Virus genome (UHGV): UHGV-0332040
From: a virus
Length of the DNA stretch: 14,032 nucleotides
Direction: 5' to 3' (one strand)
A program made the position numbers and the translations under genes. Position 1 is the first letter of the stretch; each line of letters starts with the position of its first letter. Under the pieces are notes generated by a model. The model saw only the letters and a list, made by a program, of their open reading frames with translations. It was not told where the DNA came from and made no database searches. Shown here one piece after another: positions 3,142-11,165 of this stretch.

Positions 3142-5031
3142 TCAGAGGAAGCGGGAGATGTAACCCCAATTGCAGTTTTCAGGGCGGTACAACGCTGCCA
3201 GCTCATCAGGTACACCGGACGGCACCGGGGCAGAGTCGGCGTCATAGGTGATGGGGTCGCCATACAGAGCCAACGATGACCACAGCAGAAAAGCACGGGC
3301 AGGTTGACCGTCACGCCCGGCACGTCCGATCATCTGAACTAAATCGGGCAGGTCTTCGGGAACATAAGTGACAATTACGTTACGCACGCCAGAGATATCA
3401 GCCCCCAGCCCGAAGGCTTTAGTAGCAATCAGAACCGCGCCGGGCGTGCTGGCAAACCACGCAGCGTTAGCGTGACGCTGGTCGCGGCTCAGTCGCTCAA
3501 CGTCAGAATGGTAAGGCCGGGCGCGGTCTCCCAGTTCGTTGAGATACGCATACAGCATCTTGATACTGTCCACCATCACCAGCGTCTTCTCATCCAGCGG
3601 GAGGGCATCGACCAGACCAACGGCAGCCCGGCGCGTAGTTGCGCACTGCTGAACAGGAATAAGCTGGATGTTTTCACGGGCAGCACTGGCGCGGTAGGTG
3701 AGGAACTCGCCACGACAGCCAAGCTCTTTCATCAAGCCAGACTCATCACCTTTTCGCAGGGTCGCAGTAAACGCGCACCGCTGAGCATCCGGGAAGGCAT
3801 TTTTCAGGGTGTGTTTCATTGCAGGGAAAGCGTCCCGGAACTCCCATTCATCAACGGTATGAACCTCGTCAATGATAAATCTGTCCACACCAGCGGCCAT
3901 CAGCGCAGCCAGCACCTGATTGCCCGGCACCAGATGCTCAGGTGAAACTACGGCAACGTGGAAAGCGCCAGCAGCCAACCCCGCAAGCTGTTGCGCATTG
4001 CGTCGCCTCGGCAGCTTGTCGCCAAAGGCAACAGCGTGAACGCCAGTTTCTAGCAACTGCTGTAACACCTGCTGCTTGATGGTGTTTGTAGGCACAACAA
4101 TAACGGTCAGACCGTCATCAGAATCAGATTCAAATTGCAGGGCATAGGTGAATGCAGCCGTCTTTCCGTACCCGGTTGGCAGTACGGCCAATACATCGCG
4201 GTCACGGGCAAATACGGCGGCAGCTACGTCCTGCTGGCCGGGTCTCCAGTCTCTGCCATCTAGCGGTGGTAACGGTACGAATGCCGGGCGGTCGCATTGC
4301 TCCAGCTCGCGGAACCTGTACGGCGCGGTAACCAGCGGCGGGATGGACGGCGGCAGGCCAGCACCCCCAACGTCACAATGCAGATTCAGCGTATTGAATT
4401 TATCATCCGTGGGTTTCAGCTCACCGCACCACAACTGACGGAAAGCCGGGCAGTCACCCAGTCGCGTAAAGTCAGCATGGCGCATAGCTTCCAGCTTGCT
4501 CATGCCGCGACTGATACGACGCACGATCTTCTCATCGCAAATCAGAAACTCACGGCAGGCTTTGAGGAAGGCATTCTGCCCGGTTGTCGCTTCCGGGATG
4601 GAGTGCTCGCGCGGTTTAAGCGCAGCGTCATCAACGCGAACGCCGGGGAAATCTGGCGGCAGCGGCTCGGCGTACCGGGCAGGCTTTTTGTTTAGCCACA
4701 TCTCCAGCTCAGCGCGGCGGCAGTGGATTGCATCGCCCGGCTGGATAATCTGGCGCAACCCGGCATCAGCGCGGCGGGAATGTCGCTTGCGGCCAATTCC
4801 ATTCGCCTCTTTCCATTCACGGAACGACATAACTGAACCATCTGCATTGTAGAAATACTGCCCGGAAACGGTGTTAAGCGCTGCCTTCACTGGTCGCTGT
4901 TTAACAGGGCATAACTTGGAATGAGGTATAACGATCTTATCCGCAACCAGTTGCTGAGCATCCGCAGGCTCGGTGTTCAGCGGTTCGGCGTCAGCGGCCA
5001 GCGTAAGCAAGCGGTTTAAATTGGTTGGCAT
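3142..5031 (-). CDS. RecQ-family SF2 DNA helicase with an unassigned ~260-aa N-terminal domain (629 aa)
   Basis: Helicase motifs run in order: WRPGQQ (Q-motif-like), LPTGYGKT (motif I), IIDEVH (motif II, DExH) and FTATL (motif III). The end YHSD...LIATKAFGLGADISGVRNVIVTYVPEDLPDLVQMIGRAGRDG matches RecQ motifs V/VI (GRAGRDG). GGAG lies 9 nt upstream of the ATG at 5031. Confidence 0.85.
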   Translation of the reverse strand: MPTNLNRLLTLAADAEPLNTEPADAQQLVADKIVIPHSKLCPVKQRPVKAALNTVSGQYFYNADGSVMSFREWKEANGIGRKRHSRRADAGLRQIIQPGDAIHCRRAELEMWLNKKPARYAEPLPPDFPGVRVDDAALKPREHSIPEATTGQNAFLKACREFLICDEKIVRRISRGMSKLEAMRHADFTRLGDCPAFRQLWCGELKPTDDKFNTLNLHCDVGGAGLPPSIPPLVTAPYRFRELEQCDRPAFVPLPPLDGRDWRPGQQDVAAAVFARDRDVLAVLPTGYGKTAAFTYALQFESDSDDGLTVIVVPTNTIKQQVLQQLLETGVHAVAFGDKLPRRRNAQQLAGLAAGAFHVAVVSPEHLVPGNQVLAALMAAGVDRFIIDEVHTVDEWEFRDAFPAMKHTLKNAFPDAQRCAFTATLRKGDESGLMKELGCRGEFLTYRASAARENIQLIPVQQCATTRRAAVGLVDALPLDEKTLVMVDSIKMLYAYLNELGDRARPYHSDVERLSRDQRHANAAWFASTPGAVLIATKAFGLGADISGVRNVIVTYVPEDLPDLVQMIGRAGRDGQPARAFLLWSSLALYGDPITYDADSAPVPSGVPDELAALYRPENCNWGYISRFL

Positions 5032-5052: not shown

Positions 5053-5490
5053 TTAAATACTACGCGCCCAAGCTAAATCTTCGGGTGTCCGACTTTCGAT
5101 TAACGCTAACTGCCAGCGTAAGTAATCCTCATGTTCTTTGGTGTATCGGGGAATACCTATAGGATTTTTCACAGCGTCCGGGTTAGTCCTCGCGACTTCC
5201 CTGCAATCTCGGTCGAAAGCCCAGCGGGCAACTTCCACCGATTCGTAATCCGTAAATCGGTACGGCCTTGTGCGGGAACGTACACGCCAGACAACTTGCC
5301 CTAATTCGTGGATGTATATGCCGCAAAGTTCATCCGGGCTTGGGTGATACAATGGCTCCCCATAATTCTGGCGCATGAACTTCACAAACTTTTGATTGCG
5401 GCGGGCACGCCGTGCTTTTTCGCGTCGCTCCTCGGCTTCATACTCTTTTTGAATGGCGGCACGGTCTACCGGGATAAGTGTTTTGCTCAT
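5053..5490 (-). CDS. Hypothetical protein (145 aa), first gene of the helicase operon
   Basis: The start is trimmed to the ATG at 5490 (MSKTLIPVD...), which has GGAG about 8 nt upstream. The track ORF extension to 5667 runs through the iteron-like repeats and has no RBS. Basic EERREKARRARRNQK stretch; no family recognised. Confidence 0.6.
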   Translation of the reverse strand: MSKTLIPVDRAAIQKEYEAEERREKARRARRNQKFVKFMRQNYGEPLYHPSPDELCGIYIHELGQVVWRVRSRTRPYRFTDYESVEVARWAFDRDCREVARTNPDAVKNPIGIPRYTKEHEDYLRWQLALIESRTPEDLAWARSI

Positions 5491-5560
5491 ACAGTGATCT
5501 CCAGAAATTAATGTGAGTTTGGAACGGGGCGCAGGACGGAAGCGCCGGGAGTGTGGCAGT

Positions 5561-5914
5561 CTGTCCTCCTTAGTAGTTACCATCATTGCAATGGCGTCGG
5601 AGTTCTGTCTCTCTTTAGTAGTGATCTTCATCCAGTAATTTGGATTAAATGCAGACACGGCGGGCATTGCAGCGAGATGGAGAGTAGGCGGGCTTGCGGT
5701 TTCAGTCTGCCTTAGTACAAGTTTCTAGTGGTCGGTAGCCTTTCCCTTATTAGTAGCTCTCATTTATCCGGGGCTTGTCTTCCCACACAGTAGCCGTCTT
5801 CTAAAGCAACCACACCACAATCCACTACTGGCAAGGAGTTAGCAGACACGGTGATGTAGGCTACTCAAGTGTGGATTTGTAGGCGTTTTATAGTATCTGT
5901 CCTTCTTATTAGAC
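5561..5914. repeat. Array of six degenerate iteron-like repeats (plus-strand consensus about CTGTCYTCYTTAGTAG)
   Basis: Copies lie at 5561-5576, 5605-5621, 5705-5718, 5739-5756, 5774-5793 and 5897-5914, all in the same orientation. Three are spaced about 35 bp apart. A second perfect 10-mer, GCAGACACGG, occurs at 5651-5660 and 5842-5851. Confidence 0.6.
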
Positions 5915-5980
5915 ACCTTTAAATTTCATTAATAAATACAGTTAGTTAAACGGTTATCTTTATTACTTATAAATTTCACA

Positions 5981-6002
5981 GATCAATAAATTAAAATTGA
6001 TC
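5981..6002. repeat. Perfect 7-bp inverted repeat carrying two GATC sites (GATCAAT-N8-ATTGATC) inside an AT-rich block
   Basis: Read directly from the sequence. The surrounding region, about 5915-6050, is strongly AT-rich by eye. Confidence 0.7.
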
Positions 6003-6015
6003 GGAATTATCAGCT

Positions 6016-6044
6016 TTAATTTTCTTGACAGCTATTTGTATAAT
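6016..6044 (+). promoter_or_regulatory. Candidate sigma-70 promoter (perfect -10 TATAAT at 6039-6044, weak -35 TTAATT at 6016-6021)
   Basis: The TATAAT is preceded by TG at 6037-6038 in an AT-rich context. The TTGACA at 6025-6030 is only 8 bp from the -10, so it cannot be its -35. No plus-strand ORF lies downstream. Confidence 0.3.
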
Positions 6045-6050
6045 GGTTTT

Positions 6051-6190
6051 AAGAAGTTGTATCGGAGTGAGCGACTGGCAGTGAGCGTAGCGAACGATAA
6101 GCCAGTCGGCGAAGAACGAAGAGTATGAGATGACTTGTCATCGAATACGATGAGTGATTGAGCGGTACGAACGGAGATACGCTGTATAAC
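6051..6190 (+). ncRNA. Candidate structured purine-rich RNA downstream of the TATAAT promoter
   Basis: Stop-rich, with no ORF on either strand apart from the low-complexity 64-aa track ORF on the minus strand. There is an 8-bp perfect stem CGACTGGC/GCCAGTCG (6072-6079 / 6101-6108). There is a near-palindromic hairpin at 6123-6148 and a possible closing helix GTATC/GATAC (6059-6063 / 6176-6180). The motifs GAGTGAGCG and CGAACGA repeat. Ends and strand are not established. Confidence 0.3.
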
Positions 6191-6222
6191 AGTTAGAACA
6201 GTTAACAAGCTGATTAATGCTT

Positions 6223-6387
6223 TCAATGATTATCTGAATCAGTGTTATCAATTCCGAAATAACTCTTCCTCTCCTGTATTGATTCAATCATTTCTTTCAT
6301 TTCAAGAATCACTACCAGCTCAGCTAATAACCGTCTCAGTTCAACATTTGAATCATTAGCACGACACTTATTTTCTGAGTATTCCAT
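6223..6387 (-). CDS. Small charged helical protein (54 aa), below the ORF-track cutoff
   Basis: Hand translation gives MEYSENKCRANDSNVELRRLLAELVVILEMKEMIESIQERKSYFGIDNTDSDNH. GGGAG lies 8 nt upstream of the ATG at 6387. A candidate promoter lies upstream. The gene is AT-rich, moron-like in composition. Confidence 0.45.
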   Translation of the reverse strand: MEYSENKCRANDSNVELRRLLAELVVILEMKEMIESIQERKSYFGIDNTDSDNH

Positions 6388-6432
6388 ACGGTCAACTCCC
6401 TACGGTATAAGTCCATTCCAATCCGTTCACAG

Positions 6433-6460
6433 ATTACATTGCTGAATGATCATCAGACAA
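6433..6460 (-). promoter_or_regulatory. Candidate sigma-70 promoter for the 54-codon ORF (TTGTCT-16 nt-TGTAAT) with a GATC-centred near-palindrome in the spacer
   Basis: On the minus strand the -35 is TTGTCT (6455-6460) and the -10 is TGTAAT (6433-6438). The spacer overlaps the near-palindrome CTGAATGATCATCAG (6442-6456). The motif GTGAACGGATTG (6419-6430) sits at the predicted transcription start. Confidence 0.35.
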
Positions 6461-6479
6461 GTGGCAGTCATCATCACCA

Positions 6480-6920
6480 AGTTAGAGTCGTCTCGCTACA
6501 TATCCCCGCCGGATTGCCAGCGCGGCTAACACGGTTGTGAGGAGCGCCGAGCATCACAGCGGACGCAGGCCGATGAACGAGCCGTAGGTGAGTGAAAGCG
6601 GACTCGCGGACGCGAGAAGCGCAGCAGCAGGCGGCGACTGATAAACGAGCCAGACAGGTGAGTGCAAGCAGGCGTAAGCACTGCACCGTTGAGAGGTGTG
6701 GAGACGGCGGAACGTCTCCGCGTTAGGGAGGTGGATTTGGGGAGGATGTGCAAGGCACACCTCGCTCCACCCACGGGGTGTCGGTGGGTAGGGGTATAAC
6801 GCTAATTGGTTAAGTGTACACATGTACGCTGAAATCATTAAAAGCCTATAGAAACAGCATGTAACCCAGCACCACGACATAACCAATTATCGTTGAACCC
6901 CCTCCCCGGCCCCACCCGGA
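6480..6920. ncRNA. Candidate large structured non-coding element (GC- and purine-rich on the plus strand)
   Basis: There is no credible ORF; the three minus-strand frames are open only because that strand is pyrimidine-rich. Five strong hairpins lie at 6603-6616, 6657-6687, 6700-6719, 6742-6763 and 6769-6789. Two ~30-nt degenerate repeat units lie 68 nt apart (6572-6601 and 6640-6672). G-runs at 6726-6745 and 6775-6794 face a C-run at 6898-6919. AT-rich sequence flanks the island. Confidence 0.3.
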
Positions 6921-7089
6921 ATTTTTCAGTGATGAATCACTTCACAATCTGATCTCGATGTTCATCGTCTGGCACGGCTAAAGCCCCGCCATCTCTTCAC
7001 ATCGAGAGCCGCAAGTAATACGAAAATACATTATAAATCATAGCATTACGACATCGCGCATAACATAACGCTCTGAAATTAATACGAAA

Positions 7090-7207
7090 GCTGTAGGTCA
7101 TCCATCACCCACAGCCCAGTAACGGCCAGTGCTGGCACCTCATTTGGCTGTAGGTCAGCCCGACCCCACCGCCCAATAACCCCACCCGGCAGCAATGGCA
7201 CGGCACC
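7090..7207. repeat. Tandem pair of ~50-60 bp degenerate direct repeats starting GCTGTAGGTCA
   Basis: Unit 1 is 7090-7139 and unit 2 is 7147-7207. Both begin GCTGTAGGTCA and end ...GGCACC. TAATACGAAA is duplicated just upstream at 7016-7025 and 7080-7089. Confidence 0.65.
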
Positions 7208-7329
7208 AGACGCAGCGTAACGATCTCTGAGTTGATAAATCACTTAGGGCAGCGTAACCCACACCCAACGGCTCACATCCTCGCAGAGAGGCTCACAGAT
7301 CACCTCGTGACATTTCACAGCATCAACCC

Positions 7330-7953
7330 TCAGACGCTGGCAGCCAGCTCACGCTTAATGCGGTAGAACGTTGCCCGGCTTATCCCGGCAGCTTTCATGA
7401 TGCGCTCCGGTTTCACACCCTGCGCCAGCATTTCCCTGACGGTCTCGCGAGCGGCGGCATCCTTCTGACTCCCACGATAAAGCCCCTCAGCTTTGGCTCG
7501 TTCAATGCCCTGCCGCTGGCGCATCAGTCGCGTCTCGTAGTCCACGCGGGCCATTGTAGCGAGGATATCGATCAGCATTGCGTTAACGGCTCTGAGGATG
7601 CCGCTGGTTAGCTCTGACGCGGTTTCGTTCAGCAACTGCCACGAGGTTGGCAGGTCAACGGCGACGATCACCAGCCCCTTATCCTGAATCCTCTGTTTCA
7701 GTGTCGCCCATTCCTTTTGTGTCAGGCGGCTTAGCCTGTCTATGCTTTCGACAAGTAGAACGTCGCCAGCCTCCGCCTCACCCAGCAGGCGCATCAGTTC
7801 AGGACGCTCCAGCCGCGCACCGCTGGCGTTCTCGATGTATCGCGCAGCAATAGACCAACCACGCTCATTAGCGAAATCCTCCAGCGCAGGAACGGCACGG
7901 TCGGCGTGTTGCTCGGCGGTGGATGCCCTGGCATACAGACGAACGTTATTCAT
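7330..7953 (-). CDS. Small serine recombinase (resolvase/invertase family, 207 aa)
   Basis: The N-terminal RLYARASTAEQ carries the catalytic-serine motif. VLLVESIDRLSRL is the resolvase core motif. ISRATFYRIKRE is the C-terminal HTH. GGAGGG lies 6 nt upstream of the ATG at 7953. Confidence 0.9.
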   Translation of the reverse strand: MNNVRLYARASTAEQHADRAVPALEDFANERGWSIAARYIENASGARLERPELMRLLGEAEAGDVLLVESIDRLSRLTQKEWATLKQRIQDKGLVIVAVDLPTSWQLLNETASELTSGILRAVNAMLIDILATMARVDYETRLMRQRQGIERAKAEGLYRGSQKDAAARETVREMLAQGVKPERIMKAAGISRATFYRIKRELAASV

Positions 7954-8536: not shown

Positions 8537-9037
8537 TCAGCACCCCACAGCAGCATTATCCGGCATCAGAAACGGAATCAGTTTAGTATCACCATGCACA
8601 TATAACGGGTGCATAGGCTCTCCCGTTGCGTTAATTTTAAAACACTTCGTATCTACAGGAAGGAACGCCCGTACTACGGCAGAGCGTTTCAGGTGCCGCC
8701 CTTCATTCCCCCACGCAGCAACAACGATACCAGCACCAGCTATCAATTCTGCCAGATACTTATCATTATCCGCCCCGACAGGCTCCGGGAATCTCATCAT
8801 CTCAAAGCGGTCAGTACACACATACGCGAACAGGTTCGCGATACGTACCCCCCCGAAGCCCCAGCTCTGCGCAAATGAGATACAACGTTTCAGTGTGGGG
8901 TCGTCAAGCTCTGCGTCCGCATACGATGGATTCAAACCGATGAAAAGAGCATAAGGCTTTGCAGCGTCCCACGTTCTGGAAATAGCGTAACGGTACTTCC
9001 CGCACACAGAGAAGATCGCGTCTTTGTTCACATCCAT
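8537..9037 (-). CDS. DUF1643-family protein (166 aa)
   Basis: From memory, this is the strong family pattern of DUF1643 proteins. It includes CGKYRY...R.W, LFIGLNPSYAD, DDPTLKRCISFAQSWGFGG, NLFAY, AAWGN and HPLY...TKLIPF. The start ATG at 9037 lies 2 nt after the stop of the upstream small ORF, with GAGGG as its SD. Confidence 0.85.
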   Translation of the reverse strand: MDVNKDAIFSVCGKYRYAISRTWDAAKPYALFIGLNPSYADAELDDPTLKRCISFAQSWGFGGVRIANLFAYVCTDRFEMMRFPEPVGADNDKYLAELIAGAGIVVAAWGNEGRHLKRSAVVRAFLPVDTKCFKINATGEPMHPLYVHGDTKLIPFLMPDNAAVGC

Positions 9038-9875: not shown

Positions 9876-9938
9876 CAAAATAAGTAATCGCGGTACTTAT
9901 CCCGGTAGTTGGTAGCGGTAGATTACAAGGTAATTACC

Positions 9939-11165
9939 ATGCCAATCAAGAAGACTTCTTATCTTTATGCAAACAAAGATGGGATATTCATCTTTCAAAT
10001 CTTTATCCCGGTGTACATGCGCCACTTATGGCACGGGCGGCGCTCACTCAAGAAATCGACAGGCACGCGGGACATCATGCAAGCTCGCATATTCCGTGAC
10101 CAATACTTATTAGAGTTCCGAAAGCTCCAGCTCATGATGAAACCGGATAACCCTATAAACCGGATTCATTCTGCTATTTCAGATCTTCACTTACTGGCGG
10201 GAATATCCAGCGACATTACCGCGCCCGTAACTACTCCAGCAGAACGAGGGAAACCAGCGTCGCCAAAATTGACAGATGTCAGTAAAGAATATGCAGAGCA
10301 ATACAAAGATCGGCGCTCTTATTCCACATTGAGTAAATCCGCTCGCGCTGTATCAGCATTCACTAAATCAACTAAGCGCCCAACAATTACAATAAACGGA
10401 ATCGGGCGGCGGCTCGTCTCTGACTTTCTGAAAGCGAACCAAGATAAGTTTTCCCGGCAGACGATGCAAAACTGGTTAACTTGCTTAGGTACGCTGTACG
10501 ACTTCGCCCGGCGTAAATATGACAATATCGCCCCTGATAATCCCTTTCACGGCCACAATCTGGAAGCCCGTCAGACAAACGAAAGTTACCAGCCGTTTGA
10601 ACCGCACCAGCTACAGACATTAACAAAAAAGGCAGGTGACGAAATAAGGGATGTAATAATAATCGGGCTGTATTCCGGGATGCGTCTTGATGAAATAGCC
10701 AGCATTAAACGGGATGAGGTTGTCACCATCGACGGCGTGCGGTGTTTCTATGTCAGTAAATCAAAAACAAAGGCGGGTATAAGGCATGTCCCTGTACACT
10801 CGCTGTTATTTGACATTGTTGATAAATACCTCGCGCAAAACAGCGGGGAGTACCTGCTCCCCCAATCCAACAAAATTAAACGCGCGGATGGTAAACGTGG
10901 GCCGTGGTATTCTCAGACATTTACCCGCTTACGTCGCCGGGTACTACCAACAGCCACAGAGCGCCAGTGTTTCCACTCCCTGCGTGGTCACTTCATCACC
11001 TGCTTAGACCGGGCAGGTGTACCAGAACAGCGCATAGGAGCTATTACCGGGCATACAGAGAAAAAGGCAAAGACGGAAGCATTTAAAACGTACAGCCAAG
11101 GGGCTGGGATGAAAGAACTATCTGAATACGTAGAGCTGGTAAGTTATCCAGAACTTGAATCATAA
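9939..11165 (+). CDS. int: Tyrosine recombinase / phage-type integrase (408 aa)
   Basis: The C-terminal catalytic pattern is present: GMRLDEI (Arg), HSLRGH (His-x-x-Arg) and GHTEK...FKTY (His and Tyr). It lies directly next to the tRNA-derived att core. The start is trimmed to the ATG at 9939; the track start at 9909 is a TTG. Confidence 0.9.
   Translation: MPIKKTSYLYANKDGIFIFQIFIPVYMRHLWHGRRSLKKSTGTRDIMQARIFRDQYLLEFRKLQLMMKPDNPINRIHSAISDLHLLAGISSDITAPVTTPAERGKPASPKLTDVSKEYAEQYKDRRSYSTLSKSARAVSAFTKSTKRPTITINGIGRRLVSDFLKANQDKFSRQTMQNWLTCLGTLYDFARRKYDNIAPDNPFHGHNLEARQTNESYQPFEPHQLQTLTKKAGDEIRDVIIIGLYSGMRLDEIASIKRDEVVTIDGVRCFYVSKSKTKAGIRHVPVHSLLFDIVDKYLAQNSGEYLLPQSNKIKRADGKRGPWYSQTFTRLRRRVLPTATERQCFHSLRGHFITCLDRAGVPEQRIGAITGHTEKKAKTEAFKTYSQGAGMKELSEYVELVSYPELES

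Follow-up and report, generated by a model that had tools for sequence, protein, structure and literature searches.

The closest described counterparts of the locus considered here are the counter-transcript RNAs (ctRNAs) of plasmids (CopA of R1, RNAI/II of pT181) and the face-to-face promoters of phages 186 and P2, where a structured RNA lies opposite a replication or early operon. Among phage satellites, control run by RNA has so far been established mainly for P4, whose CI RNA, encoded in a control region that separates the integrase/accessory genes from the replication genes, silences the replication operon in place of a protein repressor. We analyzed a stretch of viral DNA of 14,032 nucleotides (nt) (UHGV virus genome UHGV-0332040; hereafter, the window), which by sequence comparison is identical to the chromosome of E. 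coli strain 5735 (NZ_CP154887.1) and which lies within an island that appears to be phage-satellite-like. An earlier reading of the letters alone (the sequence-only reading) had flagged positions 6016-6242 as an orphan promoter driving a hairpin-rich, non-coding segment convergent with a small open reading frame (ORF). We found that 6055-6183 is a strongly constrained, non-coding structured element of the plus strand, i.e., a three-way junction, that stands directly 3' of a perfect -10 hexamer and whose helices are kept through compensatory changes.

The locus resembles the ctRNAs in that its RNA would adjoin a control region, its alleles differ in patches with the fold kept, and constitutive promotion is predicted. 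It differs from them in the loop of its second helix, which is 21 nt long compared to 5-7 nt for a kissing loop, and in the apparently much greater length of the RNA (0.5-0.9 kb), which includes a pseudoknot; the leftward promoter and the target leader are putative here, and there is no sequence or Rfam relationship. As in P4, a satellite would silence its replication operon by an RNA encoded in the control region; however, P4 CI is processed from a same-sense leader and terminates via seqA/seqC complementarity, whereas the RNA here is antisense-oriented. In addition, comparison of 6046-6200 to the window gave no internal complementary repeats above shuffles, and there are no P4 marker genes in the island. 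If the conserved blocks described below form one transcript, the RNA would also recall ROOL and GOLLD, i.e., long, multi-domain, phage-related non-coding RNAs (ncRNAs) supported by covariation, although it has no Rfam match, a narrower taxonomic range (Enterobacteriaceae and Rosenbergiella), and a continuity of the transcript that is predicted only. We would class the element as a new RNA family within a general kind already known, the regulatory or structural ncRNAs of mobile elements.

A constrained three-way junction on the plus strand

The element belongs to a conserved segment, Block B, and is formed by three helices on the plus strand. P1 (6055-6063/6176-6183) encloses P2 (6072-6079/6101-6108), an 8-bp stem with a purine-rich loop of 21 nt, and P3 (6109-6163), a long hairpin with the apical loop CUUG (6134-6137), in which, as read from the sequence, five tandem G.A/A.G steps interrupt the Watson-Crick pairing. 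Every feature flagged in the sequence-only reading was found in its place. The stem CGACTGGC/GCCAGTCG, with the loop AGTGAGCGTAGCGAACGATAA, is P2; the closing helix GTATC/GATAC (6059-6063/6176-6180) now lies within P1, and the near-palindrome GTATGAGATGACTTGTCATCGAATAC (6123-6148) within P3, which extends it into a long helix. The domain is followed by a variable plus-strand tail (6184-6242), with a weak hairpin CUGU-AUA-ACAG and, in some islands, a 9-nt indel; a 6-bp stem, CTGATT/AATCAG (6210-6215/6237-6242), spans the stop codon of the small ORF.

Block B occurs as two types of alleles; of the 10 sites in 6055-6185 that distinguish them, eight are in predicted pairs. The P2 pair 6075:6105 is C-G in type 1 and U-A in type 2. 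In the RNAalifold consensus, the P3 pairs 6117:6154 and 6114:6158 change between the alleles from C-G to U-A and from G.U to U-A, respectively, and six of the eight paired variable sites make up three compensated pairs. An alternative register of P3 turns the tandem G.A/A.G at 6114/6115 into U-A and G-C and the pair 6113:6158 from A-U into an A.A mismatch; site 6158 is the sole one that breaks a pair, and seven of the eight variable sites keep or create a pair. Overall, 95% of cells are paired in the named structure, and shifting the partners by 1-3 columns lowers this to 16-46%. A diverged copy in the Rosenbergiella island L008 adds three further double changes in the P2 stem (GCAAGGC/GCCTTGC) and keeps the ends of the P2 loop (AGTGA...GAACGATAA); when the enterobacterial copies were made into a covariance model, the model detected this copy at full length (E ~9e-4). 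The covariation analysis, a check that the sequence-only reading had suggested, thus yields compensated pairs, from few independent contrasts.

The strand can be assigned from the same changes. The structure of minimum free energy on the plus strand is the three-way junction in both alleles, whereas the folds of the minus strand differ between them. Read on the minus strand, the G.U and G.A pairs would be C.A and C.U mismatches, so that the functional strand is the plus strand; the CUUG loop, the G.U pair 6114:6158 and the tandem G.A steps are sensible on this strand only. The plus strand of 6046-6200 is 64% purine.

We compared the window to 20 related islands that carry Block B. Across these, 5920-6200 is 93-100% identical to the window, while the helicase gene of the same islands is 70-100% and the iteron region 69-97% identical; the region of the small ORF is ~70-78% identical in islands without the intact ORF. 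Conservation collapses past ~6195, with a 9-nt indel, an 11-nt indel and many substitutions. The position of Block B is constant, between the helicase and recombinase genes, and the block is missing from the islands L004, L036, L037 and L040-L042, which retain the other conserved blocks. The claim that the segment has no ORF held for conserved ORFs, none of which is found on either strand, but not literally, as mechanically called ORFs exist (plus strand, 5997-6128; minus strand, 6032-6226 and 6049-6141). These are truncated or lost by allelic changes, notably in the type 2 alleles, and the allelic substitutions in Block B are mostly non-synonymous with respect to them.

It should be noted that the listed features, each taken alone, do not exceed chance: the window contains two perfect 8-bp stems with loops of 3-30 nt, compared to 6.0 +/- 3.0 in shuffles, and one TATAAT per strand. 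The evidence above chance is comparative, i.e., the conservation of 5920-6200 and the compensatory changes in P2 and P3. The motifs of the segment had also been thought to recur in a GC-rich island downstream; this did not hold, the best matches scoring 21-23 compared to 20-31 for shuffled queries.

The perfect -10 hexamer (TATAAT, plus strand, 6039-6044) predicts a start at ~6051-6052, and the structured domain begins ~4 nt after this site. The orphan promoter proposed earlier is therefore plausible as to its -10, but a canonical -35 is absent. Only 8 nt separate a perfect TTGACA (plus strand, 6025-6030) from the -10 that follows it, too few for it to work as the -35 of TATAAT; at a distance of 17 nt there is TTAATT (6016-6021), which matches the consensus at three of six positions. 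The -10 is invariant in the 20 copies, and the surrounding sequence is equally invariant. Islands L004, L008 and L041, which carry non-homologous modules here, have a TATAGT box at the same site, followed by 150-330 nt of 65-72% purine, and in L041 the box is directly followed by a hairpin, GUAUCG-CU-AGAUAC, with arms as in P1. These boxes support a predicted rightward promoter at this site across the island family.

A predicted counter-transcript and its downstream blocks

Our leading reading, to which we give about an even chance, is that the flagged stretch is the folded 5' domain (6051-6183) of a plus-strand ncRNA that acts as a counter-transcript to the leftward operon. A sigma-70-type -10 at 6039-6044, in its A/T-rich context, would start transcription at ~6051. 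The nascent RNA would fold at once into the P1-P3 junction, with P3 stiffened by the tandem G.A steps, and the transcript would continue rightward through the variable stretch 6200-6480 and a pseudoknot at 6508-6547 to end at a U-tract terminator, with a total length of ~0.5 kb in most islands and up to ~0.9 kb here. Its start would adjoin, back-to-back, the region that controls the leftward helicase/packaging operon, and the RNA would run head-on against, and be complementary to, leftward transcripts that cross the 1.8-kb spacer, which could start at a minus-strand -10 (7035-7030). Such a counter-transcript, or switch by convergent transcription, would hold the replication/packaging operon off in the integrated, quiescent island. 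We propose a counter-transcript because the RNA is opposed to the leftward genes and back-to-back with the control region of the operon; the function is a best guess from this layout.

The plus strand remains purine-rich through 6484-6780, where the next conserved block is found. No island of the family lacks Block C (~6495-6625), not even those without Block B, and the block contains an H-type pseudoknot on the plus strand (6508-6547; helix a, 6508-6512/6531-6535; helix b, 6520-6522/6545-6547). In this structure 90% of cells are paired, with low values when partners are slid, and the covariation score is 0.41, compared to 0.14 in shuffles, none of 500 of which reached 0.41. There are several types of compensatory pairs, and an A:U pair was co-inserted in two islands; the pair 6508:6535 is G.U in nine of 11 sequences, pointing to the plus strand, and the motifs CGGCNARC and CCGAGCATC are invariant. 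The pseudoknot probably belongs to the same predicted plus-strand transcript as the 6055-6183 domain.

In many relatives, Block C is followed by a terminator-like AGGGGAAGAACCCTT-TTTTG in plus sense, so that an RNA ending there would measure ~0.5 kb. In the window this region is replaced by a long nested inverted repeat on the plus strand (6730-6753/6893-6916 and 6786-6815/6877-6906), i.e., a ~190-nt hairpin, followed by U5 (6923-6927). The terminator scan made no call there; the repeat with its U5 is a candidate 3' end of the RNA in this island. Its 5' arm is G-rich and its 3' arm C-rich, and other islands have different sequences in the same layout of a purine arm and a pyrimidine arm. Further on, there is a small hairpin at 6930-6941 (GUGAU/AUCAC; GUGGU/ACCAC in L037), and Block D has a covarying helix at 6953-6961/6999-7007 whose strand is ambiguous (UCUCGAUGU/ACAUCGAGA in the window; UCUUGA/UCAAGA or GAGGAUG/CAUCCUC in other islands). 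The only TATAAT of the minus strand is at 7035-7030. Its TAnnnT is kept in most islands, with the variants TATAGT, TATATT, CATAAT and TACAAT and no evident -35, and the box is a candidate leftward promoter that would face the flagged RNA from ~1 kb.

A bolder extension, which we hold to be rather improbable, is that Blocks B, C and perhaps D make one multi-domain RNA of 0.5-0.9 kb that serves as the maintenance/immunity determinant of a hitherto unclassified family of enterobacterial satellites with a capsid gene, in the position of a repressor gene. It would consist of the three-way junction, the pseudoknot and the long hairpin, divergent from a lytic-type operon, and its specificity would be set by exchangeable 5' domains, i.e., types 1 and 2 of Block B, the L008 form, and the unrelated purine-rich modules of L004 and L041.

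Several points weigh against the counter-transcript. The folding z-scores of the segment (-1.3 to -2.4) are unremarkable, and the covariation of Block B comes down to essentially two independent contrasts (type 1 versus type 2, and L008). The consensus scan did not call a promoter at 6039-6044, where no canonical -35 is present at 16-18 nt, and no intrinsic terminator was called in the window; the leftward promoter to be opposed is represented by a conserved TAnnnT box. When 6046-6200 was compared to the rest of the window, neither direct nor inverted matches rose above shuffled controls, and the lack of significant complementarity suggests no trans target within the window. Search of the whole window against Rfam 15 at the gathering threshold gave no match (C4/P4-type, STAXI, ROOL, GOLLD and ribozymes included). 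Finally, the iterons, the AT-rich block and the GATC palindrome beside the promoter fit a replication origin equally well.

If transcribed, the element would represent an RNA family that is neither annotated nor in Rfam, with a fold supported by covariation and a place where a satellite-like island has its control region. About 13% of the island core is non-coding yet selected for RNA structure, which suggests that regulation, or contact with a helper phage, is RNA-based. With its single promoter, its three helices and two naturally occurring alleles, the locus offers a cheap experimental handle on the silence and induction of the island; if Blocks B-D prove to be one long immunity RNA, the interest would be considerably greater.

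Alternative explanations

The main rival is an origin-linked role, and it depends on the DNA immediately upstream of the RNA. The AT-rich block (5920-6045; ~79% A+T), in which an A/T tract precedes the -10, is 94-100% identical in the 20 islands and always accompanies the RNA; two roles come into question for it, that of a promoter-upstream/operator region and that of an origin-unwinding region. Five iteron-like repeats at 5565-5919, C(C/T)TT(A/C)TTAGTAG (of the CCTTAGTAG type), separate this block from the helicase operon, and the distant island L035 has ~9 copies of CCTTAGTA at the equivalent place (3430-3830). Two further observations concern this region. The AT-rich block contains a perfect palindrome, GATCAAT-N8-ATTGATC (5981-6002), with two Dam sites, 37-58 nt upstream of the -10, and this palindrome overlaps a near-consensus core for IHF, ATCAATAAATTA. 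Read on the minus strand, the iteron-like repeats are CTACTAAGGAG, which resembles a Shine-Dalgarno sequence.

According to this explanation, which we regard as doubtful, the iterons and the AT-rich block with its GATC sites are a replication origin from which the promoter fires away, and either the purine-rich RNA primes or opens the origin as an R-loop, or supercoiling driven by transcription activates it. The repeats adjoin the AT-rich block, with its two GATC sites, right beside the operon of a RecQ-like helicase, and are retained in islands whose helicase is only 46% identical. The purine richness of the plus strand (64%; 65-72% in the non-homologous modules) outlasts the conservation of sequence, and purine-rich RNA favours RNA-DNA hybrids. 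The AT-rich block is, however, upstream of the promoter and outside the transcribed part, and an R-loop needs no selection for a defined three-way junction or pseudoknot. The sequence of the repeats does not track that of the helicase among islands: islands with a 98-100% identical helicase have iterons of 77% identity, and those with a helicase of 70% identity have iterons of 97%. We saw no DnaA box on reading the sequence, some islands (L036) lack a marked AT-rich block, and profile searches of the island proteins identified no initiator domain. The comparison to ColE1 RNA II and the T4 origin transcripts is similarly divided. Here too, a promoter beside an origin-like region would give a G/A-rich structured transcript, whose composition may resemble that of the purine-rich region near the ColE1 origin; on the other hand, this island has its own helicase and iterons, its AT block is upstream of the promoter, and the sequence points to no processing site for RNase H or Pol I.

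It is unlikely that the RNA acts in trans, as a decoy or sponge that binds a protein of the host or of a helper phage, or as a small RNA that pairs with helper-phage transcripts via the 21-nt P2 loop. Block B would in that case be an exchangeable accessory module, consistent with its absence or replacement in islands that keep Blocks C and D. It is also far more conserved than its flanks, as if matching an external partner, and both ends of the large purine loop are retained in L008. Yet a terminator of the Hfq type is absent, no match was found in 50,697 phage records, plasmids or IMG/VR, and no partner can be named. A CsrA sponge was considered and rejected, since there are only two GGA motifs, at 6174, lost in most copies, and at 6065, lost in L018.

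That no RNA is made, and that the segment is an element of DNA with protein-binding sites or hairpins (an origin, packaging or recombination site), is quite unlikely. Conservation is equally high in the AT-rich half (5920-6045) and in the structured half, there are palindromes at 5981-6002 and 5988-6022, and the island has serine recombinase and packaging genes. However, the compensatory changes are 30-45 nt apart, G.U gives way to U-A, tandem G.A replaces Watson-Crick pairs and the purine content is strand-asymmetric, all of which is indicative of a single-stranded, strand-specific molecule. Moreover, the segment is 1.2 kb downstream of the recombinase gene, and a res site would be expected on the upstream side of that gene.

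We rate no higher the explanation that the segment works on the minus strand, as a C/U-rich untranslated leader of leftward transcripts, i.e., a zone in which Rho loads or attenuation takes place before the helicase operon is reached. Here the island genes point leftward, 1.8 kb precede the helicase operon untranslated, and the conserved TAnnnT box at 7035-7030 is on the minus strand. Rut sites are C-rich and G-poor, and the minus strand of 6046-6200 resembles them in composition (32% C, 15% G). Against this, G.U and G.A pairs would turn into C.A and C.U mismatches, and the alleles share no fold on the minus strand. A leader would explain the base composition but not the covariation, and it is compatible with a counter-transcript rather than exclusive of it.

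The sequence-only reading had likened the layout to modules of a small protein and an antisense RNA, as in type I toxin-antitoxin (TA) loci. The ORF in question (6223-6387, minus strand, stop at 6223-6225) encodes 54 aa (WP_165689111.1) and is intact in four of the 20 Block B islands, namely, the window, L003, L027 and L031. The remaining islands have a frame-breaking 11-nt deletion and divergence in the ORF region; L002 and L005 have no minus-strand ORF of at least 30 aa in its place, and alongside the RNA copy of L008 a counterpart of the ORF is absent. Only three near-identical clusters were found among 5.8 billion proteins, with no match in Pfam, PHROG, NCBIfam or PADLOC. The peptide is charged rather than membrane-like, as had been noted earlier: 19 of its 54 residues are charged, and the longest hydrophobic run is ~9 residues. 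These comparisons indicate that the ORF is an allele-specific passenger and not a conserved partner of the RNA.

Thus, a type I TA-like pair is scarcely credible, despite the convergent layout on a mobile island that it shares with hok/sok, par of pAD1 and SprA1/SprA1AS, the plausible Shine-Dalgarno sequence (GGGAG) 8 nt before the ATG, and the annotation of the ORF in RefSeq for E. coli 5735, because the RNA and the ORF, whose product is non-hydrophobic, without a membrane segment and outside any matched family, are not conserved together, an outcome that the sequence-only reading had itself named as refuting its model. An overlap of the RNA with the mRNA of the ORF would require read-through past 6223. 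Short contigs that bear the ORF were also considered as possible transcript assemblies and rejected, as their ends (5804-7090, 6121-7329) miss the predicted 5' end of the RNA; an ENA contig that carries the ORF has ~1x coverage.

Further searches and the island

The Rfam/Infernal check that had been proposed for the segment matched no known family, and at E<=10 over 5400-7400 there were four chance-level matches only. Searches of phage and plasmid databases, for near and distant relatives, and three pattern scans of IMG/VR gave no match, and nothing relevant was found in the literature by sequence or by topic. In metagenomes, a 20-mer of the P2 loop, GGCAGTGAGCGTAGCGAACG, is found exactly at 22 loci, nine of which are homologous islands. 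The remaining loci represent ~6 independent families with the motif in differing structures: L013, L015, L020 and L032 are from termite gut, and the others are L016/L030, L025/L028, L017/L026 and L022. The contexts include 39-nt tandem repeats, found in termite gut and upstream of a PspC-like gene, and contigs from soil and wetland. The chance expectation is ~1-4 exact matches in ~10^12 nt, to which the ~6 families come close, and the covariance model scores of these loci are insignificant. We therefore treated the non-island loci as chance or low-complexity matches and not as relatives, although the coincidence is not fully explained. Resemblances to a CRISPR repeat, a tRNA, the sarcin-ricin loop and lacO were unsupported and were dropped.

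Judged by its genes, the island is phage-satellite-like and belongs to a family of such islands in Enterobacteriaceae; the tools used matched it to no described satellite family. The gene order opens with an integrase (408 aa), which is the sole one of these genes not oriented leftward. Between it and the helicase there are leftward genes for an endonuclease, HNH, capsid (HK97-type) and scaffold-like proteins and for several small helix-turn-helix or unknown proteins. The RecQ-like DEAD/DEAH helicase (629 aa; 3142-5031) and an ORF of 145 aa (5053-5490), both on the minus strand, are followed by ~1.8 kb (5500-7330) without conserved genes, then by a minus-strand serine recombinase (207 aa; 7330-7953) and accessory genes. 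Matching gene orders were found in other E. coli and in Enterobacter, Trabulsiella, Citrobacter, Cronobacter, Kosakonia and Rosenbergiella, with insertion at tRNA-Thr, tRNA-Leu and tRNA-Gly and with differing cargo (TIR, DUF3800 and restriction-modification genes among others).

PADLOC assigned the helicase to DpdF (1053 bits, residues 111-629). We rejected this identification beyond similarity at the family level, as the other Dpd genes are absent, and the model probably stands for the helicase family of this island; residues ~1-250 have no match to a Pfam family. In locus L001, the flanks of the window's island (1-1956 and 18701-20969) contain identical copies of a 544-aa integrase and a DUF4145 protein beside tRNA-Gly, which suggests that two elements inserted here in tandem or one within the other. 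In the window, a minus-strand ORF of 166 aa (8537-9037) has a strong match to DUF1643 (E 2e-38) and a 98% identical copy in island L005; the RefSeq record has no coding sequence there. A plus-strand ORF of 418 aa with a TTG start (9909-11165), opposite which RefSeq annotates a hypothetical protein on the other strand, has unannotated Phage_integrase and SAM-like domains (E 8e-10) and may be a degraded integrase.

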